This document shows positions 17,080-54,679 of a DNA stretch of 64,000 nt, piece after piece. The notes below the pieces were generated by a model, which saw nothing but the letters and a program-made list of their open reading frames with translations, did not search any database and was not told the origin of the DNA. A program made the translations under genes and the position numbers. This DNA is from a virus. The stretch lies in the IMG/VR virus record IMGVR_UViG_2881155292_000002; one strand, 5' to 3'. Every line of letters starts with the position of its first letter. The stretch's first letter is position 1.

Positions 17080-17082
17080 ACC

Positions 17083-17619
17083 ATGCAGATCAAAATGCGG
17101 GCCGTACTGAGCCAGGCTGAGCTCGAGGAGGCCGTGCGCCTGTTCGTGCGTCAGGAGCTCCCGTCGGCCACCGACCAGAACATCACCGTCACCTTCGAGG
17201 ATGACAAGGACGGCAACCTGACCGCGGCTGTCGACATCGACAGCGCTGATGGTGGCGAAGCTCCGAGCCAGAAGCCGAAGACCACCCGCAAGAAGGCTAT
17301 TCAGGGCGCCAAGGACGCCACTGTGGTTGCTGAGCAGGCTTCCGAGGAGAAGCCGGCCGAGACTACCGCCAATGTCCAGGAAGAATCGGAGAGCGCTGCT
17401 GACGCCTCCAAGGATCTGCCGTGGAAGGAAGATGCCGCCGGCACCGACCAGCCGATCGTCAAGGAAGACAAGCCGGTGACCCAGCCGAACGAGATCCCGG
17501 CCGAGACCACCAAGATCTTCCCGGATGCGGTTTCGTCGGCTGCACCGTCGGCACCGAAGCCCGACACGGCTGCCGCTGCCAAGTCGCTCTTCGCCAACCT
17601 GACGAAGCCGACCCAGTAA
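17083..17619 (+). CDS. hypothetical protein with acidic/Ala-rich low-complexity C-half
   Basis: GAGG RBS; ends 'AAKSLFANL', similar in style to the SSB tail. Confidence 0.75.
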   Translation: MQIKMRAVLSQAELEEAVRLFVRQELPSATDQNITVTFEDDKDGNLTAAVDIDSADGGEAPSQKPKTTRKKAIQGAKDATVVAEQASEEKPAETTANVQEESESAADASKDLPWKEDAAGTDQPIVKEDKPVTQPNEIPAETTKIFPDAVSSAAPSAPKPDTAAAAKSLFANLTKPTQ

Positions 17620-17622
17620 GCC

Positions 17623-17790
17623 ATGGCGGTCATCAAGGCGCTGCTCATTGCAGCGCTGGTCACCTTGGGATTATTCATCATAATCGTGTGGATAATCCCA
17701 TTAATGACTTTCCTGTTAATCTTCGCTGGTATAGCGGTTATCGCCTACGGGATTCTCAGGGAAGACAAAGCGATCAGCAGGCCCCCCTAG
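17623..17790 (+). CDS. small membrane protein (55 aa, 2 TM)
   Basis: Translated by hand: MAVIKALLIAALVTLGLFIIIVWIIPLMTFLLIFAGIAVIAYGILREDKAISRPP. Confidence 0.65.
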   Translation: MAVIKALLIAALVTLGLFIIIVWIIPLMTFLLIFAGIAVIAYGILREDKAISRPP

Positions 17791-17802
17791 AGGGGGCCTT
17801 TT
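17779..17802 (+). terminator. intrinsic terminator
   Basis: aggccccc-ctaga-gggggcct-ttt. Confidence 0.7.
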
Positions 17803-17817
17803 CATTCGGGGAAACCA

Positions 17818-18102
17818 ATGAACCTGTATCACTGGGCGGCCGCCAGCTGCCTCAAGGAGTATTCGGCCGGCGACATCATCGTCATGGCCGAGACGATCGA
17901 GGATGCTCGACAGAAGGCCTACAGACACGCCGATATCTGGATCAGAGATCAGCGGGCCTGGTGGTTCAACTTTGACGGCTCAATCGACCGCGAGATGTGG
18001 CAGGACAGCTATGACGGCTTTTATCGCCTGCTCAAGGAAGATCTGGCCCAGGAACCAGACTTGATAACCCCTGGTGTCGTCTTCATTCGGGGGTCCGAGT
18101 GA
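17818..18102 (+). CDS. hypothetical protein
   Basis: ORF coupled to the next gene (GTGA overlap). Confidence 0.65.
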   Translation: MNLYHWAAASCLKEYSAGDIIVMAETIEDARQKAYRHADIWIRDQRAWWFNFDGSIDREMWQDSYDGFYRLLKEDLAQEPDLITPGVVFIRGSE

Positions 18103-18350
18103 GCGGAAACAGCTGCCGGCTCGGCGCCATGAAGGATGCCAAGATCGGTGTCGCAGCCATCTGCCAAGAGAAGGCCTACGTCGTCTTCAACAATGGCGTC
18201 CAGTTGCCGATCACCCGCTGGCTCAATGCCGACAAGCAAACCTGTCACATCGGCGAGGAGCCTCGCCATTACGAATTCGGAGATGAAGAACACGGCTATG
18301 GCACAGGCAGTTACGACGCCTATGACATGCCGTCCTGGGAGCACCACTGA
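18099..18350 (+). CDS. hypothetical protein
   Basis: Coupled ORF; possible distant paralogue of 55097..55369. Confidence 0.6.
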   Translation: MSGNSCRLGAMKDAKIGVAAICQEKAYVVFNNGVQLPITRWLNADKQTCHIGEEPRHYEFGDEEHGYGTGSYDAYDMPSWEHH

Positions 18351-18655
18351 TGCAAGTTCCACTGCCTTGGTCGCCGGCTGACCGCTATATCGTCCTATCG
18401 CCCAGCCAGAGGATCGCCCGGGATATTCTCTGGGTCGACCATCAGATCAATCCCAGGCTACCGATCCTGAGATTCTTCGGTCGGGTCGATTCGCTCCGCG
18501 GCTATCGCAACATGCCGGTCCTGACCCTGGATCCTCATCTCGAGTTCCGCCAGAGAGACCGTGACGAGCTCAACATCCTGTTCGCCTATAGCAACATCCG
18601 GAGCTGGAAGTCCGAAGACTTCCAGCATCTCAAGGATCTCAGTGGATCAAATTGA
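18350..18655 (+). CDS. hypothetical protein
   Basis: TGATG coupling; overlaps the vRNAP end convergently. Confidence 0.55.
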   Translation: MQVPLPWSPADRYIVLSPSQRIARDILWVDHQINPRLPILRFFGRVDSLRGYRNMPVLTLDPHLEFRQRDRDELNILFAYSNIRSWKSEDFQHLKDLSGSN

Positions 18656-21600
18656 TCCAGGGGTTGAGCCGGAAGGCATGCAATCCCATGCTCGGGCCGA
18701 TCGAGTAGCCCAGCTTGCCGTCATTGAACAGCGCCAGCGCATTGTCGGCCACCGGTGAACCGATGTCCCCGATCAGCGGGAAGTTGGGCACGGCGGTCAT
18801 CAGCAGCGAACGCAACGGGTTGTGGCGCAACATGTAGGCAGCTTCCTTCATGATGCGGAGCTTGTAGTTGTAGAACCACAAGAGACCCATGCTCTCGAGA
18901 TACTGACGGCCGCGGCCGGCGAGCTTGTTGTAGTTGACGAACGCCTCGTTGACCTGGGCGATCGCCTCATGCTTGCCGACCTTCTTGCGGCCGCTCAGGT
19001 GGTCATAGAGGATCGCCTTGCCGACGAAGTCGCCATACTGCACCGCACGAGCCAGGCCCTGGAACAGCGCCGTGTCGCGCGTGACCAGCGCATAGCGGGC
19101 CGGGGTCTTGAGACCATCGGGCAGCGAGTTGACCTTGCGCTCGACATAGCTCTGCCATTTGCCGTCGGCGATCGCCAGATCCTCGGCCGTGACCTGGCCA
19201 TTCGAGATGGCCGAGAACTCGCCTGCCTCGATCAGCGGCCAGATCGACATGCGCTTGTAGCTGTCCTGCAGCGAGCGGATCTCGGTCTCGAGCTTGCGGA
19301 TGGCAACCAGGTCATTCTTGCCCTTGGCCGCCCTGAGCTCTGCCTCGGCCGAGATCTCGCGGCCGCGGCGCTTGATGTAGGCATTGATCTCGGCGGTCTT
19401 GGCCGGAACACCCTTCAGCACCTCACGAAGCGGGACACCGCGGTTGAGCAGCTGGAACATGTTCGAGACCATGTTGGCCGCCGGCACGATCACCGACTTG
19501 ACCACGATCAGGGTCTTGGCATTGGCCACCACCGACTGGATGTTCTTTTCCGAACCAACCAGGATCGAATAGGCGTTGTTGCCAAGGATGCCGGCAGCGA
19601 GCTTCTCGAACTCGGTGGCGACAGTCGGCTTCCACCGGGTCTTGCCGGTGAACAGATCTCCGACCGAAGCCTGGCGGGCGCCGAAGGTATCGAGCAGCAT
19701 ATCACGACGGACCCAGAACTGGTCCGGCCCGAACACCTGCTTGATGTAGTCGCGGCTCTGCTTCGGGATCAGGCGTTCAGCCTCGATCAGGATGCGATCG
19801 TCGGTCCTTGGATCGAGTCTGGCGATGTTGACGAACTCGTTCCTGCGGCCTTCACGCTGGCCTTTCTGCCAGAGCTGATGCAGCGTGTCGACGAGCTCCT
19901 CATTGACCTGCTTTGCCAACAGCTCCTCGACCTGGCGACCACGCCAGACACCGATCATCTGCGCCAGATCCGTCGAACGGTTGAGGCTGATCAGCTTGCT
20001 GGGATCGGCCGCACGCTCGAAAGCCACGATCCGGCCGGCATTGTCGTAGACCGGCAGGAGATTTTCCCTGGTAGCCGTCTGGTTCGCCAGCTGGCGTTCG
20101 ACCAGGCGCACCATCTGAGCGTCGTCGATGCGACCGGCCATGACCTCGCCGACCGTATAGCCGGTCTCGGGATCGACGCCCGAAGCTGTCTGATGGACGG
20201 TCTGCAGCACACCCTGACTGAACGGAGCCCGACCGGAGACCGGTGCGAAATAATAAGACCGGTTGCCGAGCACACGATCGGCAGAGGAACCAGTGTAGGC
20301 TGACAGGCGCTTGTAGCCGCGGCCTACCAGGTGAGCATGCTCGCTGTCGGAAGCGATGAGCAAGGATCCGCCGCTCTGGTTCTCCGAAGGGATATGTCCC
20401 TTGTAGTGATTGAACAACGCTGCCGTGGTTGAGCGTGCCTTGGCGAGCTCATCCGTGCGCTGGCCGACCAGGTAGTTGTTGACGAACTCGACACCATCCT
20501 TCTGGTTCCGGATCAGATCAGCGACCATGTCCCTGGATTGCTGGTCCGTCTGCTCGATGGCATAAAGCGTGACCAGGCGGTCGAGGTCATCGACCATCGA
20601 CTGAGCCGGCGTCAGGTTCCTGACACCCGCAACCGAGAAGGCAGCAATCGCATGAGCATTCCGAAGGAGCTGTGGGCCGTGTTCCCCGGTCACCATGAAG
20701 TGAGCGAGCTGCTTTGCTTTCACCAGGAACCGTTGATCGTAAGTCTGTTCAAGGGCCTGAATTTCGGCATTCCGGCGGGCTTCACTGCTTACGAGCTCAA
20801 GGCCACCCACGATCCCGTGGCGCCCATGGAGTGCCGCGAGATCCGTCTTTCCAAGCACCTTATAGAGTGCGGTCCACTGGGCAGCTGACACCGGCCGGGT
20901 GAAGGCACTGGCCAGCTTCTCCGGGAGCAGGTCACGGAACTGCTGACGGGTCTGCTGCACCTCGGCCCGGACCTTCGAGATCATGTCGAAGACCGGCGCA
21001 TTCTCACGGGTGCGGCCGACGACATCGGCAACCAGTTCCTTGATCGGGTTCAGACCCTCCCGGCGGTTGAGCCAGGAGACGACACCGAGAGCTGCCTCTT
21101 CGGCCCGAGCCTCGTTGATCATGGTGGCCGCGGCATTGACCAGGCGGGCGCCGGCGCGAACGACAGGGCTGCTGCTGGTCTGCACGACCTGGCGGCTCTT
21201 CAGCACGGCCTTCTCGCTCAGGTTCTGCGCCGCATCGGCGACGTAGTTGTTGAGCTTGTCGAGACCGTTCTCGGTGGTGCGCTCGATGAAGGTCCGCTGG
21301 TCGCCGACGTTCTCGATCATCGCCATCATCAGGCTGTCGAGAGCATCGCGGACATTGGTGTCGTTACGCTTCTCGCCCGACAGAACCAGGGAGAGCCGAT
21401 CCATGCCGGCGTTGCCCAGGTTGTCGATCGCCGCGTCCAGCGTCTTGGCATTGTCCTTGATCGTCTCCGGCTTCTTCATGCCGGCGAGGATCTTGCGGAA
21501 CCTGTCACTGGTCATGGCGAGCGAGATGAACGAGCTCATCAGCGAGGACCGGCCATGCTTGTCGGTCTCGTTGATGTAGAGGCCGTTCAGCGCATCGAAC

Positions 21601-24600
21601 ATCTGCTGCGCATGGTAGGCGTCAGCCTGGTCGTTCGGATCGTTGTTCTCGCGGAAGTCCGTGACCTTCAGCGACTTGATGACGTCGGCGTAGATATCCT
21701 CCATCCGCGAAAGCGAATTCGGGTTCAGCTGCACCTCGGTCGCCAGGGTCGCCTGGATCATGGTGAAGGTGGTCCACGCCTGCATGTTCCCGAGATCCGG
21801 GAAGTAGGCAGCAAACGACGTGGCGATGTCGGCGGCCGACTGCTTGGCATCATCGAGCTCACGAGCACGAACCAGGCGCTGGTGATGACCGGTCAGATCC
21901 TGGCCGCCCTCGTTCATCCAGGCAACCACCTTCTGGCTCAGCCGCTGGCGGATGGCCTTCAGCCGATCGCTGGTGCCGAAGTAGCGGGACTGGTACAGCG
22001 CCGTCGTGGCGAAGTCCTGCTTGAGCAGCTCCACCTGGCTCGGCGTAGCCATCAGGATCCTGGTGTTGAAGCGCAGGTTCGACAGGATCGAGTCACCAAC
22101 GCGAGGACCTTTGTTCTCGCCACCCCAGATCAGCGCCTTGAGCGCACGAAGCGCATCGCCGACGATCCGGAACAGCGGGTTCTTGACCTTGGTCTTCTGA
22201 GCCAGCGTGGCCAGGTTCTCATTGCCCAGCACCCAGGCCATGAACTCGTTCAGCGCCTGAGCGTCACGACCTGCACGCTGATGCTGCAGGATCGCATTCT
22301 CGGCCGCACGGCGGGCGCCATAGCCGGCTGCATTTTCGTTGCCATAGTCGAGAGCGAGCCACTCATCCATCAGACCCTCGATGCGGGTGATCGCATCACG
22401 CTCTTCCTTGGAGAGCAGCGTCGGGTCGGCATAGAAAGCGTTCACCTTGTCGAAGGTGGCGGCGTGGATCAGCTCGTGGACGATGGTCTCGGCCGACTGG
22501 TTCGGGATGAGGATTATCTTGGAAATCGGATCGTATTTTCCAAAGAAATCCTGATCGCTCGGGGTAGCCCGATCAGCGTTGTAAACACCTTCCCAGGCGC
22601 GCAGCTGGGCACTGTTGCCCAGCACCAGACGATGTTCGGACTTCTCCAACAGCTTCACGGCCTGGCGCATCATCTCGCGCTGGACCGGGGTCAGCTTGTT
22701 GTAGAGCGACTTGAACAGGCCGGTCAGATCCGAGCCAGTGAGCACACGGGCACCGGTCTCATCTGCAGCACCGACTTCTGCGGCCGCGGTCAGAATGGTC
22801 TCATCCCCCTGCTCGATGGCGGTCTTGCCGGCTTCCTTCAGCCGGGACTCGGCGAGCAACTCTTGGTAGCGGGCATTCATCGCTTCCGCAATGGTCGCAA
22901 GATCGGCTTCCGGATCCAGCTCGACCGAACCTTCGTTGACGAACGGGCTCTCGGAGCTGGCCATCTGGTCGACCGAAAGCGGGAACTCGGCATACACTTG
23001 CCGGCGGATATCGGTCTGCTCGGCCACCTGGTTCAGCTGAGCCAGGACCTGCTGCATGTATTCCTTCGCCTCGTCCGGCGTGAGCAACTCTTCCGGCTTA
23101 AGTTCGAACTTGCCGGCCTTGGCTTGCGAAATCTCCTTCAGAGCTTGGTTCTGCGGATCGTTCAACGCACCGCCGGGGAACAGAGCTTCCACCGGGCTGT
23201 TGCGCAGGAACTCGGCAAAGCTGTCAGCGACCGAACGCACCGGATTGGTGTTACTCGTCCAGGTCTTGAACACAGCCTCGTTGACGCCGCGGGAATAATC
23301 CTCGATGGCGTCGGCCGGCATGTTGAGACCGTCGAAGACGTGCAGCACACGGTTCGCTGCCTCCTGGTTCTGAGCCAGGAAGTTGAGCATCATCTGACCA
23401 TCGCCCGAGCCAACGGTGAGCGTGGGGATCGAGCTGACGCCTGCCAAGGTCGGGCCATAGACATAGGCCGGTGAAGACAAATCGCCCGTCAGCGAGCGAG
23501 CAAAGCTCTCCGGCATCGGGATCTCATATTCCTTGCCGTCGATCGTGATCTTGGAATGGATTACTTTCTCGCTACCGTCCGGCTGGATTTCAGTCCGGGT
23601 CAGAAGATCCGACTTTTCACCACCCGACAGGAAATAACCTTGGGTCTTGGTATCGATTATCGGAGAATATACCTGCAGATTTTTCAGAATATCATCCAGA
23701 TCTTTCTGCGACAGGAATTCCCCCTTGTTGTAGTCGTACTTCGCCGGGTCGCCCTTCATCAGGGCGATGCGGGCAGCAATCTCCTGGATGAACATGCCCT
23801 TGAGGATGATCGACTGCAGCTGGGTAGCCTGCTGGATCGCACCGGTGGTCGTGTCGACGTGCTGGGTCACCTTCTCCTGGATCGCATCCCGCATCGGGTC
23901 GACCAGGAACATCTTGATGTTGTTACGCAGAGCCTTCAGCTGCTTGCGATCGAGCACGAAATCATGCGGATTGACGACGAGCTCAGCCGACTTGCCGGAA
24001 ACGAAATAGCCTTTCTTCGGATCCTTACGGACCTGCCTGGAGACCAACTCCTGCAGGTCATCGAGGATGACGGGCAGATCGTTGGCCTGCTTGCCGGGGA
24101 TCGCTTCGGACAGCTTCTCATAGACGGCGCCGATCAGCTCATCAGCGATCTTGCCGGCAATGCCGTTGGCTCCGGAACCATAGATGGTGATGGTCAGCGG
24201 GTTCTTGGTGAGACCGCGCTTGATGGTGAGCGAGTCACCGTCGACCGTCACGTTGGCATCGAGCGCTCCCAGGAGTCGCTTGAATTGCTGGAACAGCGCA
24301 TACGCTTCCGGCGCATCGGCAGCCAGGGTCTCGTTGAGATCGGCCATATTCCGTTCGGTCTTGGTCGAGCTGTCCTCATAGAGGTCAATCTTGTGGAAGA
24401 CGCCATCCTCGGACTCGCTATTCAGCGTCTTGCCGAGACGGCCGAAGAACACACCACCCTTGGAGATCTGCTTCAGCCATTGCGGCGTGATCGAGCCAGT
24501 GGCCCACAGCATCAACGCATTGATCGGACCGTTGGTCTTGCCGTCAGCTTCTAGATAGTTGGCCGTTTCGAATGCCGACAAATCCTGGCCCTGATCCCCG

Positions 24601-27600
24601 GCGTTCTCGTAACGAGCCAGGGTGAGTAGGGAATGGATTCCATGCGGCTTGAGCTTTGCCGCCTGCAGCAGCTCGAGCGTGCTGGCCGGAATAGGACCCT
24701 TCTTGTCGAGCCAGATCTTGAGCTCTTGAACCAGGGGACGAAGTTCACCGCCCTCGGTCATGGCCGTCTTGATGACAGCCTTGACGACGTCAGCCCGGAT
24801 TGCCTTCTCAGGCTTGACCCCGGTCTGGTCAGCAATACCCTGGCCGATCGTCATCAGGAACTTGCCGAAATCCGATTCAGAAGGATCCCGTAGATCCAGC
24901 TTGGTTCCGGTCGGCATGAAGACCTCACGGGCGAGCTTGTCGGCCTGCGGGTTGGAAAGACCAGCCATTTGCAGGCGGCCCAGCTTGTTGACGTGGTGCT
25001 TGTAGTAGGTCGGCGCATTCTCGCCGTGCCGTTTCACCGCGGCCATCTGCTTGGCGACGTTGTTGAACGAGTTCACCAGCTGGCGCTGCAGACCCTTGAC
25101 CGATTCCCAGTGGGCCTTGTTGAGGCCCATCTCGGTATGCTTGCGGTCGAGATCGCCCTTCTTGTAGGGGCGCTCGCTGAGCAGCGAGACGAAGGCTTCC
25201 TCGCCCAGGGCCTGGACGAAGTCAAACACATCATGGTTCGGGAAGTAGGGGGTCTTCTGGACATTGGCCAGCGCCTGCTTCTGCTGGTCCGTGGTCTTGA
25301 CCGTCGGATTGCGCAGCTGGGTGCCGTCGACTTCCGTCACCGGTTCGCCGATCGAGTAGCTTTCGATCTCCTTGGTCTTGAAGGCCAGGTCGGCAAGCAG
25401 CTCGTGGGCGCCATCCAGGCTCTTGATCAGCGCCTTGACGTCACTGGTTCGGACATCGAACCAGACGCGGCCGAACTCCTTGTTGGAGACGGCCGGGAAT
25501 TTTTCCATTCCCAACTTGATCAGGCCAGCAGCCTCGAGCCCGTGCAAGAGTTCGGCCGCAACACCTTCCGGGATACCGCGGGTGAAATCTTCTTTGACTT
25601 CACGATTGGCTTCGACGCCCCAGAATTTGCGGACATGCTCAGCCAGGGTACGCTTCGCAATGTCGACAGAGGTGCCGCGGTTGAAAGCGGTCACCATGTC
25701 ATCGCTGACATCCTGTTCATCGATGCCCATAAAGCGGGCGACATCGCCCCTCTGAAGCTCTACCGATCGGTCAGCCAGGTTGAGCGCCCAGTCAAGAGCA
25801 GCGATAACTGCCGTCTGCATCAACTGGGGGTCATAATCCTCCATGTTCTTTTCGAGCAGGTTGAGGACCCGGGTCTCTTTCCAGCGCGTGACTTCAGTGC
25901 CAGCCTCCATTTTGGCCTTCAGGCCGTCTTCCGCCATCTTGGCATCGAGGCGGTCGTACATGTGGCTGAGCGCCTTATTGCCCAGAACCAGGAGACGCTG
26001 GAAACCCTTGAGATCATCGGCCGTGATCTTGCTCACGTCGAGACCTTCCGCGAAACCGGACACAGCACGAAGGCTGCCCAGCATACGGTAGAATGCCCGG
26101 AGCGGTGCTTCAGTCAGGTCGAGCATCCGGGAGTTGATCGTCTTCGGCAGCCGGAACGCTTCATGGAACCGGTTGCGGCCTTTCGGCTGAACCAGGTTGG
26201 GGAATGCCTCGGCCATCGTCAGAGCCGGGCCGGTGTCTTCCGTGGCTTCGACAAGATCCAGGACCCGGCGATCGGCAATCTGTTGTGCCGTCGGGGCTTC
26301 GGCCGGAAAAGCGTCAGCGCTTTCTTCGGGTTGGGTCTGCTGAGGAACCGTCTCGGCAACGGGTTCCGCGTCCACCTCGACAGGAGCCTCTACAGGCTCA
26401 ACCTTCACAGTTTCTGCGACCGGCTCCTCGACAACAGGAGCAGGCTCGCTCACTTCCTGAGTTGACGACTTCTCAGTCTCACCGGTAGATTCCGTCTTGC
26501 TGACCTCTTCCGCAGGGGTTTCTTGGCGGACATCCCTGGCGGGCTGAGCAGGCGGAAGGGGAAGCTCCACCTTCGCATTGTTGGTCTCTGACGTGGTAGC
26601 CGGAGATTTGACAGGTGCAGGTGTCGAGCTTCCCCTGTTTTCATCCAAATTCAGAGCCGGGATCTCGAGCTCGGGGATGCCGAACTCCGGATATTGCTTG
26701 GCGATGTCGTTGGCCAGCTGGCTCGTTGCCAGTGCCTCGGCATGGACCTTGCGGGCGAAACGCTCGGAGCCGGCATTGCCGACACGCACACCAACCTTGT
26801 GGTAGCCATCGGCCGGCAGGAACTTGTCATCTGGACCCAGTGCCGAATAGGCCACGTTCTGCCCGTCGCCATTGGCGATCGAGGTGTTGAGCGCCACGAC
26901 CTTGTTGCGCATCGAGCGAGCGAACAGCGCCAGCCGCTGAGCCTTGCGGCGAGCAGTCTGGACATCACCCTGGGCGATGGCCTGGTTGATGCCGGCGACA
27001 TGATCCCGGAGCGAGGTCTGGTGACCCTTGACGCCGCCATCGGTCTCGATCTGGCGGCCGACGAAGTTCATCCGCTCGTCATGCGCCTCGGTGAGCTTGA
27101 GCTCGTCCTGGAGATCCTGCGCCTGGTTCTCGACCGGGCCAGCCTCGGGAAGCCGGTTGCGAGCCTCATAGAGCCGTGCCGAGTTGAGCAGCGAGGTTGC
27201 GCTGCGGATCACGCGCTTCTGCTCCGGGGTGAGCTGGATGGTGCCCTCATCCGCCTGGAACAGGACCTGCTCGGCGACATTCGGGTTGACCGCCTGCGGA
27301 GCGACCTGAGCCACGTTGACCAGGTTGGAGACGATCTGGTGGCCCTGCTCGGAATTCATGTCGACCTGGGAGAGATCCTGGTCGGGCATCTGCATCTTTT
27401 CGCTGGCCCACTCGATGGCCTGCTTGACCTGCGGAACCTGAGCGATCTCCTGCAGGATACCGGCGTAGCTCTGGAAGCGCTGGAAGTCCTCGCTGTCATG
27501 CGAGACCTTGTCCATGAACTCGGGGAAATCCTCGAGGAACAGCTTCTTGTTGTCCTGGACGGCCTTCAGCACGAAGGCACCGGCAGCGGTGCGATCTTCC

Positions 27601-29156
27601 GGAGCAGCGGTCTCGTCGTTGGCAACCTGAGCCAGGGAGCTGACAGCCCCGAAGAGATCGGGCGACTGCGCCACGTTCTGAGCCAGATGGGAAGGAAGCC
27701 CGTCGAAAGACTCGGGCTTGATCTGGGAAGCCTGCTGGACCTGGTTGATCCACTTCTGGCTCTGCTCGTCGGTGGCGCCATTCTCCTGGGCAACCGTGCG
27801 CAACGACTCGGCGACTGCTGGAGCTTCCTGAGCTGCGGCCGCAACTGCCGGTGCCATGTTCTCGGGCGAGACCGTCGACTCGGCCTGGCGATCGGCGAGG
27901 ATCTTTTCCCCGCGCTGCTTGGCCGTGTCGGCAACGTATTTCAGGCCGACGCCTGCCGTCTTGGCCGCCTGCTTCAGACCGCCGAGAGCAAGACTCGGAG
28001 CCTGGGCGACAGCAGCCGAACCAAGGCCGCCGACAGCGCCCAGCACTGCCTGGTTGCCGACATCCTCGGTGATGCCCTGGTTCGGATCGGCCTGCAGCTT
28101 GACGCCAAGGTTCTGGGCGACCTGGCCGGTAACCGACTGGGCAGCTTCCTCGACTGGTTCCTTGATCAGGTTCTGCGCGACTTCAGCGATCGGCCGGAAC
28201 TTCAGCGGGGCTGCTTCGAAAGCGCCGACTTCGGTGACCTTGCCGATGGCAGCACCGGCAATGCCCTGGATCGCCGCGGCAGTCATGCCGGCGTTGTGAG
28301 CGATGTGTTCCCTGGCCGTCTGCGGATCCACACCATTGGCGATCGCCGCCTGGTAGTCAGGCGACGTCTGCATGAGATCCTCATGCGAGCGGCCCATGAT
28401 GTCGGTGACGGTCTGGGAGTAGGCACCGCCACCTTCCATGAGACCGATTGCTGCCGGGGCAGCAACTCGAGCCGCCATGCCTGCTGCGGTCAAGCCCTTG
28501 ATGAGCGGGCCGCCGGCGCCGAGAGAACCAGTGCCCTGAGCCACGGTGCTCTTAAGCAGCGTCGGGTTGTCAGCAATCCGCTCGACCGAATTGAGGGCAT
28601 CACGGCCGATACGCTTCAGGCCGGCGACCATGGATCCATCGGTCTTGACGTCCTGCTCGAACTGCGCCGCCGTGTCCTGCTGATCCAGAGAGCTGCGGAC
28701 ACCCTCGATATATTCGTTGCGCTTGGTCTGCTGCGACATGTCCCGGCGGGTGTAGCCGATGAAGTCGTTGAGCAGCTGGTTGGCGCCGACACCCAGTTTC
28801 GGGTTGACGATGCCGGCGCCGAGCACGCCGATCGAACCGACGGCCGAATTGAAGCCGGTGGCGACGTCGACGATGTTGTCGCTGATCCCGCGCCCGGTGG
28901 CGCCCTTCATGAAGTTCTGCAGTTCAGCGTTGCCCTGATCCAGCTGGTTCAGCTGGGACTGCACGGCCTGCGGATACTTCTGGCCGAACTCGAATGGCGT
29001 CAGGTTCTGGCGATCCTGGAGGATCTGATTGTCGGTCGCGACAGCGTTGCCCCGGTTGATGGCTTCGTTGAGCATGTCCTGTGCCACGCCGCCTTCGGTC
29101 GTGGCCTTCCCGATCTGAGCCAGATCCTGGACGAACTTGCTGTTTACGTCGGCCAT
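18639..29156 (-). CDS. virion-encapsidated RNA polymerase (N4 gp50-like, 3505 aa)
   Basis: T7-like motifs 'LEADGKTNGP' (A), 'RGLTKNPLTITIYGSG' (B), 'VFDG' (C); size; no cysteine found on read-through, an N4 vRNAP hallmark. Confidence 0.97.
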   Translation of the reverse strand: MADVNSKFVQDLAQIGKATTEGGVAQDMLNEAINRGNAVATDNQILQDRQNLTPFEFGQKYPQAVQSQLNQLDQGNAELQNFMKGATGRGISDNIVDVATGFNSAVGSIGVLGAGIVNPKLGVGANQLLNDFIGYTRRDMSQQTKRNEYIEGVRSSLDQQDTAAQFEQDVKTDGSMVAGLKRIGRDALNSVERIADNPTLLKSTVAQGTGSLGAGGPLIKGLTAAGMAARVAAPAAIGLMEGGGAYSQTVTDIMGRSHEDLMQTSPDYQAAIANGVDPQTAREHIAHNAGMTAAAIQGIAGAAIGKVTEVGAFEAAPLKFRPIAEVAQNLIKEPVEEAAQSVTGQVAQNLGVKLQADPNQGITEDVGNQAVLGAVGGLGSAAVAQAPSLALGGLKQAAKTAGVGLKYVADTAKQRGEKILADRQAESTVSPENMAPAVAAAAQEAPAVAESLRTVAQENGATDEQSQKWINQVQQASQIKPESFDGLPSHLAQNVAQSPDLFGAVSSLAQVANDETAAPEDRTAAGAFVLKAVQDNKKLFLEDFPEFMDKVSHDSEDFQRFQSYAGILQEIAQVPQVKQAIEWASEKMQMPDQDLSQVDMNSEQGHQIVSNLVNVAQVAPQAVNPNVAEQVLFQADEGTIQLTPEQKRVIRSATSLLNSARLYEARNRLPEAGPVENQAQDLQDELKLTEAHDERMNFVGRQIETDGGVKGHQTSLRDHVAGINQAIAQGDVQTARRKAQRLALFARSMRNKVVALNTSIANGDGQNVAYSALGPDDKFLPADGYHKVGVRVGNAGSERFARKVHAEALATSQLANDIAKQYPEFGIPELEIPALNLDENRGSSTPAPVKSPATTSETNNAKVELPLPPAQPARDVRQETPAEEVSKTESTGETEKSSTQEVSEPAPVVEEPVAETVKVEPVEAPVEVDAEPVAETVPQQTQPEESADAFPAEAPTAQQIADRRVLDLVEATEDTGPALTMAEAFPNLVQPKGRNRFHEAFRLPKTINSRMLDLTEAPLRAFYRMLGSLRAVSGFAEGLDVSKITADDLKGFQRLLVLGNKALSHMYDRLDAKMAEDGLKAKMEAGTEVTRWKETRVLNLLEKNMEDYDPQLMQTAVIAALDWALNLADRSVELQRGDVARFMGIDEQDVSDDMVTAFNRGTSVDIAKRTLAEHVRKFWGVEANREVKEDFTRGIPEGVAAELLHGLEAAGLIKLGMEKFPAVSNKEFGRVWFDVRTSDVKALIKSLDGAHELLADLAFKTKEIESYSIGEPVTEVDGTQLRNPTVKTTDQQKQALANVQKTPYFPNHDVFDFVQALGEEAFVSLLSERPYKKGDLDRKHTEMGLNKAHWESVKGLQRQLVNSFNNVAKQMAAVKRHGENAPTYYKHHVNKLGRLQMAGLSNPQADKLAREVFMPTGTKLDLRDPSESDFGKFLMTIGQGIADQTGVKPEKAIRADVVKAVIKTAMTEGGELRPLVQELKIWLDKKGPIPASTLELLQAAKLKPHGIHSLLTLARYENAGDQGQDLSAFETANYLEADGKTNGPINALMLWATGSITPQWLKQISKGGVFFGRLGKTLNSESEDGVFHKIDLYEDSSTKTERNMADLNETLAADAPEAYALFQQFKRLLGALDANVTVDGDSLTIKRGLTKNPLTITIYGSGANGIAGKIADELIGAVYEKLSEAIPGKQANDLPVILDDLQELVSRQVRKDPKKGYFVSGKSAELVVNPHDFVLDRKQLKALRNNIKMFLVDPMRDAIQEKVTQHVDTTTGAIQQATQLQSIILKGMFIQEIAARIALMKGDPAKYDYNKGEFLSQKDLDDILKNLQVYSPIIDTKTQGYFLSGGEKSDLLTRTEIQPDGSEKVIHSKITIDGKEYEIPMPESFARSLTGDLSSPAYVYGPTLAGVSSIPTLTVGSGDGQMMLNFLAQNQEAANRVLHVFDGLNMPADAIEDYSRGVNEAVFKTWTSNTNPVRSVADSFAEFLRNSPVEALFPGGALNDPQNQALKEISQAKAGKFELKPEELLTPDEAKEYMQQVLAQLNQVAEQTDIRRQVYAEFPLSVDQMASSESPFVNEGSVELDPEADLATIAEAMNARYQELLAESRLKEAGKTAIEQGDETILTAAAEVGAADETGARVLTGSDLTGLFKSLYNKLTPVQREMMRQAVKLLEKSEHRLVLGNSAQLRAWEGVYNADRATPSDQDFFGKYDPISKIILIPNQSAETIVHELIHAATFDKVNAFYADPTLLSKEERDAITRIEGLMDEWLALDYGNENAAGYGARRAAENAILQHQRAGRDAQALNEFMAWVLGNENLATLAQKTKVKNPLFRIVGDALRALKALIWGGENKGPRVGDSILSNLRFNTRILMATPSQVELLKQDFATTALYQSRYFGTSDRLKAIRQRLSQKVVAWMNEGGQDLTGHHQRLVRARELDDAKQSAADIATSFAAYFPDLGNMQAWTTFTMIQATLATEVQLNPNSLSRMEDIYADVIKSLKVTDFRENNDPNDQADAYHAQQMFDALNGLYINETDKHGRSSLMSSFISLAMTSDRFRKILAGMKKPETIKDNAKTLDAAIDNLGNAGMDRLSLVLSGEKRNDTNVRDALDSLMMAMIENVGDQRTFIERTTENGLDKLNNYVADAAQNLSEKAVLKSRQVVQTSSSPVVRAGARLVNAAATMINEARAEEAALGVVSWLNRREGLNPIKELVADVVGRTRENAPVFDMISKVRAEVQQTRQQFRDLLPEKLASAFTRPVSAAQWTALYKVLGKTDLAALHGRHGIVGGLELVSSEARRNAEIQALEQTYDQRFLVKAKQLAHFMVTGEHGPQLLRNAHAIAAFSVAGVRNLTPAQSMVDDLDRLVTLYAIEQTDQQSRDMVADLIRNQKDGVEFVNNYLVGQRTDELAKARSTTAALFNHYKGHIPSENQSGGSLLIASDSEHAHLVGRGYKRLSAYTGSSADRVLGNRSYYFAPVSGRAPFSQGVLQTVHQTASGVDPETGYTVGEVMAGRIDDAQMVRLVERQLANQTATRENLLPVYDNAGRIVAFERAADPSKLISLNRSTDLAQMIGVWRGRQVEELLAKQVNEELVDTLHQLWQKGQREGRRNEFVNIARLDPRTDDRILIEAERLIPKQSRDYIKQVFGPDQFWVRRDMLLDTFGARQASVGDLFTGKTRWKPTVATEFEKLAAGILGNNAYSILVGSEKNIQSVVANAKTLIVVKSVIVPAANMVSNMFQLLNRGVPLREVLKGVPAKTAEINAYIKRRGREISAEAELRAAKGKNDLVAIRKLETEIRSLQDSYKRMSIWPLIEAGEFSAISNGQVTAEDLAIADGKWQSYVERKVNSLPDGLKTPARYALVTRDTALFQGLARAVQYGDFVGKAILYDHLSGRKKVGKHEAIAQVNEAFVNYNKLAGRGRQYLESMGLLWFYNYKLRIMKEAAYMLRHNPLRSLLMTAVPNFPLIGDIGSPVADNALALFNDGKLGYSIGPSMGLHAFRLNPWINLIH

Positions 29157-29182
29157 GGGGTCCTCGGATTATCTTGAAAATG

Positions 29183-49937: not shown

Positions 49938-51587
49938 TTAATCGCCTTTAAAAATCAGATAATCAAACGACATAAGAGGAAAGCGCGCTGGGCTCTTCGA
50001 CGATCTCGTCGTCGTTCCAAGTCGGTCCGCCATTGTGCCCTCCCCGAGGACAGGCGCCTGTTCGCTTGGCTTCCACGCGTTCATGTACATTAGCATAGAA
50101 ATCGTATCGAGGCAGTCGTCTTTTCCCTTGAGACCATTTTTGGTGGCCATCCGGATTTGTTGATAAAAATGCCCCATGATTTTCGAGGATTTCAACTCGG
50201 TCGGGAAATACATCTTCCCGGACTTGAACAGCGGCACGACCAGGTTGAAGCGGGCGAGCTTGTTGATCAGCGGCCGGATGCCGGGGTCGCCGGACTTTTC
50301 CGATGAGGCGAAGTTGAACCAGATGTTCCTGGTCAGCATCTCGGCCTGCAGCCACTTGATGAACGCCTTCTGCTGGCCGGACACTTCGATGCCCACCGAC
50401 TGCGGCCGGTACATCTGAACCAGCTGGAAGAGCTTGTTGATCGACACGTCCATGGTCGTGCGCTCGCAGAAGCCGTCGACCCAGAACCAATCGCCATTGG
50501 CGTTGTAGGCCCAGACCGAGATCACCGAGAAGTCGGCCGTCTGCTTGTCGGAGGTGGCGAAGTCGGTGGTGATGTAGAAGTTGAACTGGCTCTGGCGCTC
50601 GAGCAGCTGGATGCGGGAGAACTCCCGGATCTCCTTGTCCTGGACCAGGCGTTCCTCGTCGGACGAGATGCGGAGCATGAGCTCCTGCATGAAGCCCTCG
50701 ACCTTGCCATTCAGCACCGCATCTTCGTATTGCTTGACGATGAAGTCGTAGGTGAAGCGATCCTCCCAGGCGCCGCGGAATTCCTCGCGCGTGCAGGGGA
50801 AGCGCTCGCACACCGGCCAGACGTTGACGTCCCAGGCACCCGACTCGACAGCCTCGATGAGGATGTCTTCGTTGTTGAACGGCGTGCCGTTGAAGACGAT
50901 CTTGCGACGGACCGGGTCGAGCGCGTAGTTGATACCCTTGTGGACCGTGTCCTTGATCGCCTGCATCGAGGCCTTGGACTTGGCGTCATCGTCGGAGACC
51001 AGGTCATCGAGCACCGCCAGCTTCGGGCGCTTGCCGAAGATCTTGGTGCCGCGGATACCGGTCTTGGCACCAAACATCTTGATGCCGAAGCGTTTACCTT
51101 CCTTGTTGGTGAACTCGATATAGTTGTCGGTGAAGTGCGCCTCGGGCAGCCACTCCTTCAGGAAGTCACTGTTATCATAGCGGAATTCGAGGTTCTTACG
51201 CGCCGACTTGACACCGTTGTCCATCGAGTCGGAGACGTAGATCATGCTGTCCAGCTCGCCGAATCCCGGCAGGTACTGGAAGATGGCGAGGAACGGAGCC
51301 AGGTATTCGAAGAACAGCGTGGTCTTGGCGGCGCCACGGAAACACAGGTTGGCGACGTTGCCGGTCGAGCTGGCCAGCTTGTCGAGCATCTTGAGATGCA
51401 CCGGCGGCGTCTTGTGGCTCTCACCCTCGGCGCCATTCACCAGCTTGATGAAGTTCATGAACACCAGGCTGAAGTCCGCCGGCACGTAGGATCCGTCGTT
51501 GAGCCAGGTGTAATCGACCTCGTCCAGCCACTCGTCGAGCGACTTCTTGATGACCTCGCGGCCCGAGAGCTCCAGCCGATTAGACAT
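49938..51587 (-). CDS. terminase large subunit (N4 gp68-like); C-terminal tail frameshifted
   Basis: 'HKTPPVHLKMLD', 'CFRGAAKTT', 'VLDDL', 'FNGTPFN', 'TTDFATS', 'KDDCLDTISML'. The likely true end 'SALSSYVV*' (stop near 49963) is in the -1 frame. Confidence 0.93.
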   Translation of the reverse strand: MSNRLELSGREVIKKSLDEWLDEVDYTWLNDGSYVPADFSLVFMNFIKLVNGAEGESHKTPPVHLKMLDKLASSTGNVANLCFRGAAKTTLFFEYLAPFLAIFQYLPGFGELDSMIYVSDSMDNGVKSARKNLEFRYDNSDFLKEWLPEAHFTDNYIEFTNKEGKRFGIKMFGAKTGIRGTKIFGKRPKLAVLDDLVSDDDAKSKASMQAIKDTVHKGINYALDPVRRKIVFNGTPFNNEDILIEAVESGAWDVNVWPVCERFPCTREEFRGAWEDRFTYDFIVKQYEDAVLNGKVEGFMQELMLRISSDEERLVQDKEIREFSRIQLLERQSQFNFYITTDFATSDKQTADFSVISVWAYNANGDWFWVDGFCERTTMDVSINKLFQLVQMYRPQSVGIEVSGQQKAFIKWLQAEMLTRNIWFNFASSEKSGDPGIRPLINKLARFNLVVPLFKSGKMYFPTELKSSKIMGHFYQQIRMATKNGLKGKDDCLDTISMLMYMNAWKPSEQAPVLGEGTMADRLGTTTRSSKSPARFPLMSFDYLIFKGD

Positions 51588-52389
51588 CGGTGGCCTCGTC
51601 CTTGTTGATCAGGCGGGAGGCGGCGACGTCGATCGTCTTCATCTGGCCGCTCTCGATCAACTCGCGTTGCTGCTGGGCCAGCCTGCCCAGCATGTCGCGC
51701 ATCTCCCTCATGCCGGAGTTGTCGTCGATGGTGATCTTCAGATCGCCGCCCTTGACTTCCGGCTTCTTGAGGTGGGTGAGCAGACCGATCGCTGCCTCGG
51801 CCTGGACCTTCTCCGAGTTGGCATTGACCATCAGGTTGGCCAGGTGGTTGATCGCTTTCTGGTGGATGTCCTGGTTCAGCACCCAGGTCGGAACCAGGGA
51901 CTGCTCGAGAACCAGGTTGACCAGCTTGCCCCGGGCGAAGGCCGACACGTAGGCCGAGATGTCCTTCTTCGAGGCACCCTTGGCGATCAGGGCCGCGTAA
52001 CGCTGCGGGAAGGTGCGGGCATAAGCGTCTTCGTTGCTGTGCCCCATCAGCTTGAACGACACGTAGGCGACGGCGCTGAGGTAATCCTCAGTCTTGAACT
52101 TGCCGTCCTTGAGCACGGCCGTGTAGCTGATGAAGTTCTCGCGGATGTTCTCGGCCACGATCGGGTCGGTCGAGATCTGGTTCAGCGTGTTGACCAGGTT
52201 CGGGGTGACCGACGCGCGAAGGTGCGAGGGCAGAGCCCGCTTGAGATCATCCTCGGTCAGCGAACCAGAAGCGGGAACCGGAGCGGATGCGGCGACTGCA
52301 GGTTGTGCCGGCTGTGGAACACTCGGGGGCGTTACCGCGGCAGCCGGTTGCGGCGCCAGCGGCGGATTATCAAAAAGGGACTTCGTCAT
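51580..52389 (-). CDS. N4 gp69-like protein (terminase small subunit candidate)
   Basis: 'ENIRENFISYTAVLKDGKFK', 'YARTFPQRY', 'SEKVQAEAA..LLTHLKKPE'. Confidence 0.8.
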   Translation of the reverse strand: MTKSLFDNPPLAPQPAAAVTPPSVPQPAQPAVAASAPVPASGSLTEDDLKRALPSHLRASVTPNLVNTLNQISTDPIVAENIRENFISYTAVLKDGKFKTEDYLSAVAYVSFKLMGHSNEDAYARTFPQRYAALIAKGASKKDISAYVSAFARGKLVNLVLEQSLVPTWVLNQDIHQKAINHLANLMVNANSEKVQAEAAIGLLTHLKKPEVKGGDLKITIDDNSGMREMRDMLGRLAQQQRELIESGQMKTIDVAASRLINKDEATDV

Positions 52390-52580
52390 ATTATTTCCTT
52401 GCACGCAATTATTTTTATGGTAATCATAACACCATATTCGGTGTCCGAGTTTTTAAAAATCAATTTTTGATTATCTTTTGAAATCCCTCCGGCGTTTTGT
52501 GGGTTTCCGCCGTTGAGGGTTTGAGGGCCGAGAGCAGCTGTCCCCTCCTTGCGGTGCGCTCTCGGCCCTCGTCCGTTTCA

Positions 52581-52890: not shown

Positions 52891-53211
52891 TCACCGGGCA
52901 CCGACCTTGCGCTTGCCGGTCTCGGTCTTGAGCATCCGGGCCATCATCCAGACGGAACCAGCTGAGGTGGAGGCGACGTAGATCACGCCGGCGACGGCGA
53001 TCTGCCACCAGGTTCCCTTGGTCGCGGCGTCCCAGATCATCCCCCAGATGAACAGCTGGTTGACGTACCAGATGCCATTGGAAGCGATCGACCATTTCCA
53101 GTGATGCATGACGTCACCCGAGTTTCTCGATCGGGAGACCGCGGTGAAGACGGCGTTCTGAACCAGGCAGAGCGCAGCGAAGACGAGCATTGTGAGGAGG
53201 AAGCTCATCAC
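52891..53211 (-). CDS. membrane protein
   Basis: Three hydrophobic segments; 'VQNAVFTAVSRSRNSG'. Confidence 0.7.
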   Translation of the reverse strand: MMSFLLTMLVFAALCLVQNAVFTAVSRSRNSGDVMHHWKWSIASNGIWYVNQLFIWGMIWDAATKGTWWQIAVAGVIYVASTSAGSVWMMARMLKTETGKRKVGAR

Positions 53212-54392
53212 CAGTCCACCTTCATCTCTTCAGCCGCCGGCTTGCCGATCAGCGCCACGGCTTCGGCACGCGCCACCCGCTTGGCCAGGGCGTGCTTGTA
53301 GCCCTCCATGTTGTTGACCTGGACGTAGAGGTCCTTGCGGTCGGCGGCCGGCAGACGGTGGAAGTCTTCGGTGCGGAGGAAGGCTTCGAGCTTCTCGTAG
53401 CGTTCGGTGAGTTGGGAGAGTTCCAGCTTGGTACGGTCGAGCCAGGTGCCCCAGACCATCTTAGCATCCTCGGGCTTGCTCGCCTCCTCGGCCGGCTTGA
53501 AGGGGCAGAGATCCTTGTCGGCCAGTCGCTCGTTAAGCCGGTCGCGGAGAGCGACGTGAGCGCGGTAGATGGCATGCCAGTCTGCGTCGGTGTCGTGCTC
53601 GATGCCAACTTCCTTGGCATCCTCGGTGACGTAGGCAACCAGGAATGGCTCGGCATCCTCTTCTTCATCGAGAATGACGATGAGTGGTTTGGTGCCGCTG
53701 GTCTGGCTCGCCGTCCCGGACCCTTCCGCGCTTGCGGCTGCCGGCTGCGCCTCGGCCGCGCGCACGGGCCGGTAGGCTCGCTCGAACACGTCCTTGGGGG
53801 ACCAGGAGACGTAACCCTTGAAGATGTCGGTGTTGGGCTTGTCGCGGGGGTCGGCGTATTCGACCAGGTAGCCAATATCGTCACCATCCTCGTCGGCCGG
53901 TAGCTGCCAACCACGAAGAAAGTTGTATTCGAGCCGGCTCATCACCTTGGCGTTGATCACCTTGGTTCCGATATAGGTGTGCATGTTGGGGCCGGGCGCA
54001 ATGGCGCCTTCCAACAGCTTCTGGTCGCGGGCGATGCGGCTCTTCAGCTCGTAGCCCATCAGCGCCCACATCTTGTTGACGGCATCGGTGCGCGCCAGGC
54101 GCTGGCCGATCTCGGCATTGAAGTTGGCCGGGTCGGCGCACGCGCTCTGTCCCAGGACGGTGAAACCGTTCCACAGGCGCAACACACAGATGGTCAGGAG
54201 AGCCAGGTCAGCTGGCGTTCCCTTGATAGCGTTCTGTCCAGAGGTACTTGCGTAATCCTGGTTGGACTGCTGGTCGCCCTGCGATGCGGTGAAGTAGTGC
54301 TCGGAGATGATGGCCGCGTTGACGGCCTCGAGAGTCACGCGCTCGCCAGCGCTCTTCTCGATCAGCTCCTGTTCAGTGACGGGCTTGTTCAT
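53208..54392 (-). CDS. three-domain fusion: Gp49-family + 'YIGTK...SWSPKDVFE' domain + crAss001_48-like helical domain
   Basis: 'LTICVLRLWNGFTVLGQSACADPANFNAEIG...MGYEL'; 'YIGTKVINAKVMSRLEYN..RGW.LPADE...GYLVEY...GYVSWSPKDVFERAY'; 'LDRTKLELSQLTERYEKLEAFL...LYVQ...M..Y...LAKR'. Confidence 0.75.
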   Translation of the reverse strand: MNKPVTEQELIEKSAGERVTLEAVNAAIISEHYFTASQGDQQSNQDYASTSGQNAIKGTPADLALLTICVLRLWNGFTVLGQSACADPANFNAEIGQRLARTDAVNKMWALMGYELKSRIARDQKLLEGAIAPGPNMHTYIGTKVINAKVMSRLEYNFLRGWQLPADEDGDDIGYLVEYADPRDKPNTDIFKGYVSWSPKDVFERAYRPVRAAEAQPAAASAEGSGTASQTSGTKPLIVILDEEEDAEPFLVAYVTEDAKEVGIEHDTDADWHAIYRAHVALRDRLNERLADKDLCPFKPAEEASKPEDAKMVWGTWLDRTKLELSQLTERYEKLEAFLRTEDFHRLPAADRKDLYVQVNNMEGYKHALAKRVARAEAVALIGKPAAEEMKVDW

Positions 54393-54679
54393 TTTGAAAT
54401 AATCCCTTGTTGAAAATGGATGATAATCAGCGACGGCGATCGGCGCTGTACTGGGTCATGAGCTCGTCGTGCTCTTTGCTTTTTTGGGATCTTGACCAGG
54501 GTCCGCCAGCCGGGAGCGATCTCATGGGTCCAACCCCTGGCGTCGACGATCAGATGCCCGTTGGCGCCGTAGTCCGGATAGGGGACATTCTTCTCAGACA
54601 CCGCGTCATGCACCTCGTACTTGGCGCCGTCGGGGTAGGTGTACTGGCGCCGGTGTTCGTTCTCGATCTGCTTGGTCAT
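54389..54679 (-). CDS. hypothetical protein
   Basis: AAGGGA RBS; first gene of the leftward late block. Confidence 0.55.
   Translation of the reverse strand: MTKQIENEHRRQYTYPDGAKYEVHDAVSEKNVPYPDYGANGHLIVDARGWTHEIAPGWRTLVKIPKKQRARRAHDPVQRRSPSLIIIHFQQGIISK

Follow-up and report, generated by a model that had tools for sequence, protein, structure and literature searches.

A four-module prophage protein with Acb4 and Sequestin family modules at its ends and two further modules, D2 and X, between them

Results

Module architecture of the 394-residue protein

The gene considered here belongs to an N4-like prophage and lies in a 64,000-nucleotide (nt) stretch of viral DNA (IMG/VR virus record IMGVR_UViG_2881155292_000002), the whole of which we refer to as the window. 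It is an open reading frame (ORF) of 394 amino acids (aa) at positions 53208..54392 of the minus strand, on which all of its modules are numbered below, and the ORF list, Pfam matches and AlphaFold2 modelling together give its product the order Acb4 module, D2, linker, X, linker and Sequestin module, D2 and X being our names for the two inner modules. The start of the ORF agrees in alignment with that of its closest homologs (MNKPVTE...), an AAGGGA Shine-Dalgarno sequence lies 12 nt upstream, and the start codon overlaps the stop codon of the preceding ORF as ATGA.

The AlphaFold2 model (136 sequences; pLDDT, the predicted score in the local distance difference test, 84.6) contains four folded units, at about aa 7-127, 138-209, 251-292 and 317-389, and two disordered stretches at aa 218-237 and 295-310 in which pLDDT falls below 50. 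The first of these stretches lies within linker 1 (aa 211-246; 53655..53762), which is rich in Ala, Ser, Gly and Glu, and the second overlaps linker 2 (aa 301-315; 53448..53492); both linkers are predicted to be disordered. An initial annotation, made from the sequence alone, had described separable domains joined by linkers, namely a Gp49-family domain, a second domain said to be often fused to DUF2829 (the Tad2 family), an uncharacterised segment at about aa 235-300 and a C-terminal hairpin resembling crAss001_48. Its boundaries agree to within a few residues with those from Pfam and AlphaFold2, and each of these assignments is borne out by the module analyses that follow.

We asked how common this arrangement is among the best 120 larger homologs (216-690 aa), using hidden Markov models (HMMs) built from the alignments of this analysis. 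The dominant architecture is Acb4-D2-Sequestin, found in 80 of the 120, with Acb4-D2 lacking Sequestin in another 25 and Acb4-Sequestin in 2. A few proteins have the modules in permuted order, as D2-Sequestin-Acb4, D2-Acb4 or D2-Acb4-Sequestin, and this shuffling implies that the modules are independent of one another. The insert X has one other carrier in the set, P0002 from Mesorhizobium, and the gap between D2 and Sequestin has a median length of 10 aa in the relatives as against 104 aa here. With its four modules, the 394-aa protein is a rare variant of an architecture that is common with three, and only X makes this copy unusual. The junction between D2 and Sequestin appears more generally to be a cassette slot, about 10 aa long in most relatives and filled in some, at about columns 340-440 of the alignment, by unrelated inserts of 50-110 aa (P0003/P0006, P0004/P0005 and P0009), none of which has a Pfam match in the members scanned.

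Pseudomonas phage Arace01 and Stenotrophomonas phage Philippe encode proteins (253 and 227 aa, respectively) in which Acb4, D2 and Sequestin modules follow one another as they do here, from genes directly upstream of terS, the terminase small subunit gene; both are annotated as hypothetical, lack X and have short linkers, whereas the 394-aa protein has X and long linkers. In phage N4 the Acb4 and D2 modules occur in the same order as adjacent genes, gp48 (Acb4 family) and gp49 (D2-Tad2). The N4 arrangement differs in being divided between two genes, in having Tad2 (PF11195) and not Sequestin as its third module, and in its position next to the gene for the virion RNA polymerase (vRNAP). No match to Tad2 (PF11195, DUF2829) is found in the 394-aa protein at E ≤ 1 when it is searched whole, or at E ≤ 10 when it is searched as three segments.

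The Acb4 and Sequestin modules

The N-terminal module (aa 19-119; 54036..54338), identified by Pfam and Foldseek, matches the Acb4/Gp49 family PF13876 with E = 1.3e-25 and 90.1 bits against a 27-bit cut-off, over profile positions 1-81 of 82. Its model has strands at aa 28-35, 66-73 and 78-84 and a C-terminal helix at aa 93-127, which form a three-stranded core with flanking helices like that of a dsRNA-binding domain, as in the crystal structure of Acb4 from phage SPO1. A Foldseek search returned SPO1 Acb4 (9e4w) as all of the top 13 matches among solved structures (probability 1.00; template modelling, TM, score normalised by target up to 0.74). SPO1 Acb4 (PDB 9E4W), the founder of PF13876, forms a tetramer that holds four molecules of 3'3'-cyclic GMP-AMP (cGAMP) in interface pockets (Chang et al., bioRxiv 10.1101/2024.12.30.630793), and the placing of this sponge against the cyclic-oligonucleotide-based antiphage signalling system (CBASS) in the Gp49 family, which the initial annotation had given, is correct. 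Each of eight Acb4 homologs examined bound 3'3'-cGAMP, and for the members whose phages infect Gram-negative hosts binding of 3'3'-cyclic di-AMP (cAA) was seen as well (10.1101/2024.12.30.630793). The module shares with SPO1 Acb4 its fold, with a core root-mean-square deviation of about 1 Å, and the motif F..(13)..FN..IG; it differs in that the sequence match is weak (E = 0.024), in having around aa 36-60 an insert that is helical and variable, and in being followed by further modules.

The C-terminal module (aa 316-374; 53271..53447), assigned from Pfam and the model, matches PF21825 (crAss001_48) with E = 5.9e-13 and 48.9 bits against 24.8, over profile positions 2-60 of 61, and the score rises to 52.3 bits when the C terminus is searched in isolation. 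PF21825 is the Sequestin family, whose members are sponges for 3' cyclic ADP-ribose (3'cADPR) directed against type I Thoeris; 10 of 13 tested members inhibited this defence (Tal et al., bioRxiv 10.1101/2025.07.12.664507). The family came to light when Pfam families that occur in fusions with Tad2 or Acb4 were sought; it was the most frequent of them, with 91 Acb4 fusions, and phage YH6 is a published source of such a fusion (10.1101/2025.07.12.664507). The module is an alpha-helical hairpin with helices at aa 317-339 and 349-389 and pLDDT of 94-98, and it carries R320, E324, Q358 and R372, which are invariant in an alignment of 14 relatives. The spacings between these residues (4, 34 and 14) are those of R7, E11, Q45 and R59 in SequestinB, and by spacing and Pfam alignment the residues map to the SequestinA contacts R8, E12, Q47 (printed as 'O47', which we read as Q47) and R61 (10.1101/2025.07.12.664507). 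It thus resembles the members of the family known as SequestinA, SequestinB and T4 Y16O, which are hairpins of about 60 aa with the four contacts at the same spacing; most Sequestin members stand alone, whereas this one is the last of four modules.

A shorter protein that joins members of these two sponge families, again with Acb4 first, and in which the Sequestin R/E/Q/R positions are likewise present, has been characterised experimentally. Gp59 of the N4-like Pseudomonas phage vB_PaeP_C2-10_Ab09 (Migulavirinae) is a tetramer that binds glycocyclic ADP-ribose (gcADPR) tightly and cGAMP more weakly, and that also binds 2',3'-cAA (bioRxiv 10.64898/2026.06.04.730250). It inhibits CBASS partially and triggers Panoptes, whose decoy, 2',3'-cAA, is bound both by Ab09 gp59 and by the Acb4 of N4 (10.64898/2026.06.04.730250). 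The Acb4 core of the 394-aa protein is 47% identical to the Acb4 domain of Ab09 gp59 (E = 3e-18). Ab09 gp59 differs in its length of 147 aa, with the two modules joined directly where in the 394-aa protein D2, X and two long linkers intervene, and in its location in the hotspot between the primase and vRNAP genes and not upstream of terS. A dual-sponge function such as the end modules would have is ordinary, already published and not new.

The D2 module

D2 (aa 137-210; 53763..53984), delimited by its homologs, by hhalign and by the model, is an unnamed small barrel of the order beta-beta-alpha-beta-beta-alpha. Nothing in Pfam matches it, even at E ≤ 10; it does match three PHROGs families of unknown function, phrog_872, phrog_9467 and phrog_32732, and when homologs were sought in the size class of 55-177 aa, 2605 were returned at about 70% identity. 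The best 120 of these short homologs comprise 79 D2-Tad2, 19 D2-Sequestin and 2 Acb4-D2 proteins and 20 without a Pfam domain, 12 of which are bare modules of 73 aa; the frequent fusion to Tad2 is the one stated in the initial annotation. A protein-atlas feature search found D2 only in clusters of viral 'hypothetical protein', and cluster names gave no information. Stand-alone 73-aa D2 genes are flanked on one side by a gene for a class II ribonucleotide reductase and on the other by one for a glutaredoxin in related marine metagenomic phage contigs, with their starts coupled to those neighbours, and no sponge gene is found near them in the contigs examined.

On sequence comparison, D2 falls into one family with the N-terminal domain of RyR Tad, gp68 of Pectobacterium phage vB_PatP_CB1: hhalign aligns D2 with gp68 residues 1-91 over 66 columns (Prob 96.2, E = 2.7e-9), BLASTP gives E = 3e-4 for the gp68 N-domain, and the motifs GYLV.Y and Y.SWSP..F are common to both. 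A fold search of BFVD with D2 likewise returned an RyR-domain protein, that of Yersinia phage TG1 (E = 1.8e-4). In the RyR Tad crystal the N-domain is a strand-swapped dimer with a five-stranded sheet. The gp68 domain (residues 1-68) and D2 are both N-terminal to a gcADPR sponge module; they differ in that identity is only about 27%, that the partner of the gp68 domain is RyR-like and not Sequestin, and that gp68 lacks the canonical D2 patch of R153, Y156, N157, R160, G161 and W162. Within the family, D2 keeps about 24 nearly invariant positions, largely polar or aromatic. They include K144, R153, Y156, N157, R160, W162, Y175, Y179, Y194, W197 and Y207, a set rich in aromatic and basic side chains.

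The model of D2 alone (pLDDT 92.5) has four main strands and two helices. The D2 profile has no match at E ≤ 10 to PDB sequences, the entries searched apparently not including the RyR Tad crystal, and the model has no significant relative among solved structures, the best Foldseek match having E = 0.55. The best VIA-align match is to DUF1653 (3be3; Z = 5.1), followed by Tudor, SH3 and CarD-RID-like barrels (Z 3-4.7), all of them below the noise level of that tool; from the model, the fold may be a small SH3/Tudor-like barrel, possibly like DUF1653. Other candidate identities were set aside. A likeness to SPO1 Tad2 appeared in weak Foldseek rows (E 1.6-3) that we treat as noise, and 6E3C, the oligonucleotide-binding (OB) fold of phage L Dec, proteins with domains like which had been excluded in a Tad2 survey, is absent from the D2 fold lists; this identity was not confirmed. 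Published descriptions set apart Lockin (a hexameric beta cog absent from INPHARED phages), Acb5 (an enzyme), TadIV-1 (found only in Straboviridae) and Tad3-8 (which bind ThsB or ThsA).

Among predicted structures the D2 fold occurs together with Tad2, Sequestin, Acb4 plus Sequestin, Sequestin plus Tad2, and RyR (in Yersinia phage TG1). D2 accompanies at least four sponge families, namely Acb4, Tad2, Sequestin and RyR Tad. Acb2/Tad1 is possibly a further partner, judging from a D2-like fold (TM 0.62) in a predicted-structure cluster that carries the Acb2/Tad1 hairpin.

The X module

The segment between the linkers that had been noted as uncharacterised is a conserved module. X (aa 247-300; 53493..53654), defined by HMMER, alignment and the model, is a mobile beta-hairpin plus helix of about 55 aa, modelled with intermediate pLDDT (62-75). 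An exhaustive HMMER search found it in 80 cluster representatives at E ≤ 1e-3, 47 of them at E ≤ 1e-10, both alone (70-80 aa) and within proteins of up to 544 aa, and where its genomic context was examined the module sat in an accessory region of a phage or prophage. In the trimmed alignment H266 and R289 are invariant and W272, H279, R283, D284, C296 and P297 nearly so; as a guess, a metal could be bound by H266, H279 and C296. In 10 of the 80 representatives X is followed by a restriction-alleviation domain, Lar (PF14354), as a separate domain, and in none of the 80 does a sponge Pfam domain occur. The 394-aa protein itself gave no match to Lar, with cut-offs of E ≤ 10 for aa 222-318 and E ≤ 0.001 for aa 230-300. 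Since inserts at the D2-Sequestin junction are variable or absent in the relatives, X looks like a cassette in a permissive linker.

Genomic setting

The gene opens the late (packaging) block at its 5' end, upstream of terS as in Arace01 and Philippe, and lies far from the vRNAP gene (18639-29156); the initial annotation was right that it sits away from the position of gp49 in N4, and the site is one common to other Schitoviridae. Upstream, the stop of a 96-aa ORF without a family match (54389..54679, minus strand) overlaps its start, and downstream its stop overlaps the start of a hydrophobic 106-aa ORF (52891..53211, minus strand) that belongs to phrog_33664, of unknown function. Then come a gene for an N4 gp69-like protein (51580..52404, minus strand; phrog_2109), annotated as terminase small subunit in relatives, and the gene for TerL (49938-51587). 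The window has no second copy of the Acb4, D2, X or Sequestin module. A megablast search of 50,697 phage records found no near-identical DNA to the locus, NCBIfam has no match for the 394-aa protein, and a scan for sigma-70 promoters and terminators gave nothing convincing on the strand of the gene. The sequencing runs listed as carrying the gene comprise one plant-metagenome DNA run and no RNA run.

The window lies in a complete 6.46-Mb chromosome, within a prophage of about 76-77 kb (G000:C1, about 1,847,800-1,924,400). Host genes give way to phage genes some 3-4 kb to the left of the window, and the right flank holds a phage RNA polymerase gene and a tyrosine integrase gene (L016:7345-8520) that abuts a tRNA-Arg(TCT) gene (L016:8611-8687), about 8.6 kb past the window. 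The element is N4-like (Schitoviridae-type), with a vRNAP of 3505 aa and a gene order circularly permuted relative to that of N4; integrated N4-like proviruses have been reported and are rare (PMC10654107). The closest homologs of the 394-aa protein are on Mesorhizobium contigs of 108-164 kb, which suggests that similar prophages occur there. The host chromosome encodes a ThsB-type Toll/interleukin-1 receptor (TIR) protein, a strong match (PADLOC PDLC00418, E = 4.7e-64; G000:C1:1415332-1415616, minus strand), with a second TIR-domain ORF about 2 kb away (G000:C1:1413044-1413283, plus strand). Of the neighbouring ORFs that were scanned, none was recognised by PADLOC as a ThsA effector.

Three further features of the window were recorded. 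The heptamer GATAATC is strongly enriched, with 24 copies against 4.5 ± 2.2 expected, a number reached in 0 of 100 shuffles; examples are at 29167, 35663, 39393, 46982 and 52469 on the minus strand and at 2164, 4203, 11219 and 54715 on the plus strand, and that at 54422 has the opposite orientation to the gene for the 394-aa protein. Six small plus-strand ORFs adjoin the vRNAP gene at 16648-18652, the position of the published 'anti-signalling hotspot' of N4-like phages, and these six have no Pfam match and no Acb4, D2, Sequestin or X module. A homing endonuclease ORF of the HNH / NUMOD4 / I-HmuI-like type lies among the replication genes at 13872-14909 (plus strand).

Discussion

We consider it probable, at roughly 0.78, that the 394-aa protein is a modular protein that counters bacterial immune signalling, with a sponge family module at either end and two further modules between them. 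Its oligomeric states and ligands, and any activity of D2 and X, we infer. The protein would act as beads on a string. The Acb4 module would form a tetramer and sequester CBASS-type cyclic dinucleotides, cGAMP or cyclic UMP-AMP (cUA) isomers, and may also take up cyclic di-AMP species, as do homologs from other phages of Gram-negative hosts. The Sequestin module would form antiparallel dimers whose interface pockets sequester 3'cADPR (1''-3' gcADPR), the signal of type I Thoeris. In this way a single protein could blunt two signalling defences, as has been shown experimentally for the shorter fusion Ab09 gp59. By analogy with the crystallised RyR Tad domain to which it is related, D2 would probably form a dimer and aid assembly, the exchange of a beta-strand tying the whole together, and it may have an additional binding function of its own; X would be an accessory cassette inserted in the linker between D2 and Sequestin. 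The ThsB-type TIR protein of the host supports an anti-signalling role. The initial annotation had proposed a polypeptide that sequesters several second messengers, with D2 and the segment now called X as possible new sponge modules. The first part stands insofar as an anti-CBASS family and an anti-Thoeris family are joined in one protein, though such fusions are published and the idea is not new; the second is so far unsupported, X keeping company with Lar and not with sponge domains.

Several observations weigh against this reading, and they are best considered together with the alternatives to which they point. Ten ligand contacts of SPO1 Acb4 can be compared, and four are identical in the 394-aa protein (F48, F62, N63 and I66 correspond to F77, F91, N92 and I95), whereas six differ, E49, V56, Y57, T70, K81 and K36 being replaced by T78, C85, A86, L99, A110 and L65. 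Among the six are the guanine-reading E49, whose counterpart T78 is invariant in the clade, in N4 and in Ab09, and the phosphate contacts Y57, T70 and K81. Ligand preference may therefore differ from that of SPO1 Acb4, and cGAMP may be bound with low affinity, as in Ab09 gp59, where T and C likewise stand at the positions of E49 and V56, respectively. In addition, no match to SMODS/CD-NTase, the cGAS/DncV-like nucleotidyltransferase of CBASS, was found in the host genome. It might be argued from these changes, from the weak cGAMP binding and partial CBASS inhibition of Ab09 gp59 and from the lack of a CD-NTase in this host that the Acb4 modules of this clade no longer target cGAMP-type CBASS signals, that they bind other nucleotides or nothing, and that the protein is essentially anti-Thoeris. 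We think this doubtful, given that all eight of the diverse homologs tested bound 3'3'-cGAMP, that N4 Acb4 and Ab09 gp59 bind 2',3'-cAA, and that the core motif of the family is kept (F77, F91-N92, I95-G96). The position of the gene at the head of the late packaging block, and not in the early region, is an odd timing for counter-defence, though one that the relatives share. It is co-oriented with terS and terL, and its start and stop overlap neighbouring ORFs, as might be expected of a packaging or virion accessory protein; the PF13876 genes of Escherichia phages Huey and 24-32N are, moreover, labelled 'anti-CRISPR protein' in the deposited records. A role of either kind in place of counter-signalling is nonetheless very improbable. 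Both end-module families have direct biochemical and genetic evidence as sponges, and the protein matches no structural-protein family in Pfam or PHROGs. We found no support in the literature for the anti-CRISPR label on PF13876; an equation of AcrIIA9 with that family proved wrong, AcrIIA9 being linked to PcfK and AcrIIA7 to DUF2829, neither of them to PF13876.

The remaining points of this kind concern the middle of the protein, where two readings of D2 and X compete. In one, D2 is a ligand-free dimerisation or spacer module, X is a neutral passenger, and the protein is functionally an Acb4-Sequestin dual sponge. This we would put at somewhat less than an even chance: the RyR Tad N-domain is a strand-swapped dimer in the crystal and was inactive by itself, Ab09 gp59 works without D2, and X occurs in a single relative, at a junction that tolerates other inserts or none. 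A passive spacer, however, would not be expected to hold some 24 nearly invariant, largely polar or aromatic positions, to persist as a 73-aa gene away from sponge genes, or to be the most conserved module. Mean pairwise identity in 87 tripartite proteins is 60.6% for D2, 53.6% for Acb4 and 36.0% for Sequestin, and in pairs whose Acb4 modules are less than 40% identical D2 stays at 62% while Sequestin falls to 35%, figures that come from phylogenetically non-independent pairs chosen by their similarity to the query. In the other reading, a third or fourth immune signal or component is neutralised by D2, and possibly by X, as a sponge or inhibitor not yet described, making the protein a three- or four-target array. 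The 'guilt by fusion' logic is the same as that which led to Sequestin: the partners of D2 in fusions are Tad2, Sequestin, Acb4 and RyR Tad, and the Acb2/Tad1-hairpin cluster contains a fold that resembles it. The constraint on D2, its aromatic and basic residues and its free-standing gene point the same way, and X has an anti-restriction domain beside it in some of its representatives. The sole tested relative of D2, gp68 residues 1-86, had no activity against type I Thoeris on its own and serves dimerisation in the crystal; this negative result carries over to D2 only in part, since the gp68 domain lacks the R153/Y156/N157/R160/G161/W162 patch. Set against this reading too are the want of a significant nucleotide-binding structural relative for D2, the DUF1653 match being below noise level, and, for X, the consistent lack of sponge Pfam domains and a model of only intermediate confidence. 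We hold this second reading to be the less likely of the two, and entertain it tentatively. In its most novel form, to which we give no more weight, D2 would be an autonomous counter-defence module, whether a sponge for a signal outside the range of its partners or a binder of a conserved host immune component, that is attached combinatorially to known sponges, and X would be a Lar-linked accessory anti-defence cassette. The conservation of D2 together with its free-standing copies suggests that it also has a binding function of its own.

Fusions of sponge modules show phages bundling counter-measures against several signalling defences, and it was through fusion partners that a new sponge family, Sequestin, has already come to light. 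Among the partners still lacking an explanation D2 is now the most frequent, with thousands of copies, no Pfam entry and free-standing forms, and it is conserved more tightly than the sponges that it accompanies; the lone published test of its family concerned a divergent copy and a single defence system. If D2 and X are indeed counter-defence modules, the protein would represent a three- or four-target array carried by a temperate N4-like phage. The role of D2 could reveal either a new immune signal or target, or a general principle by which sponges are assembled.

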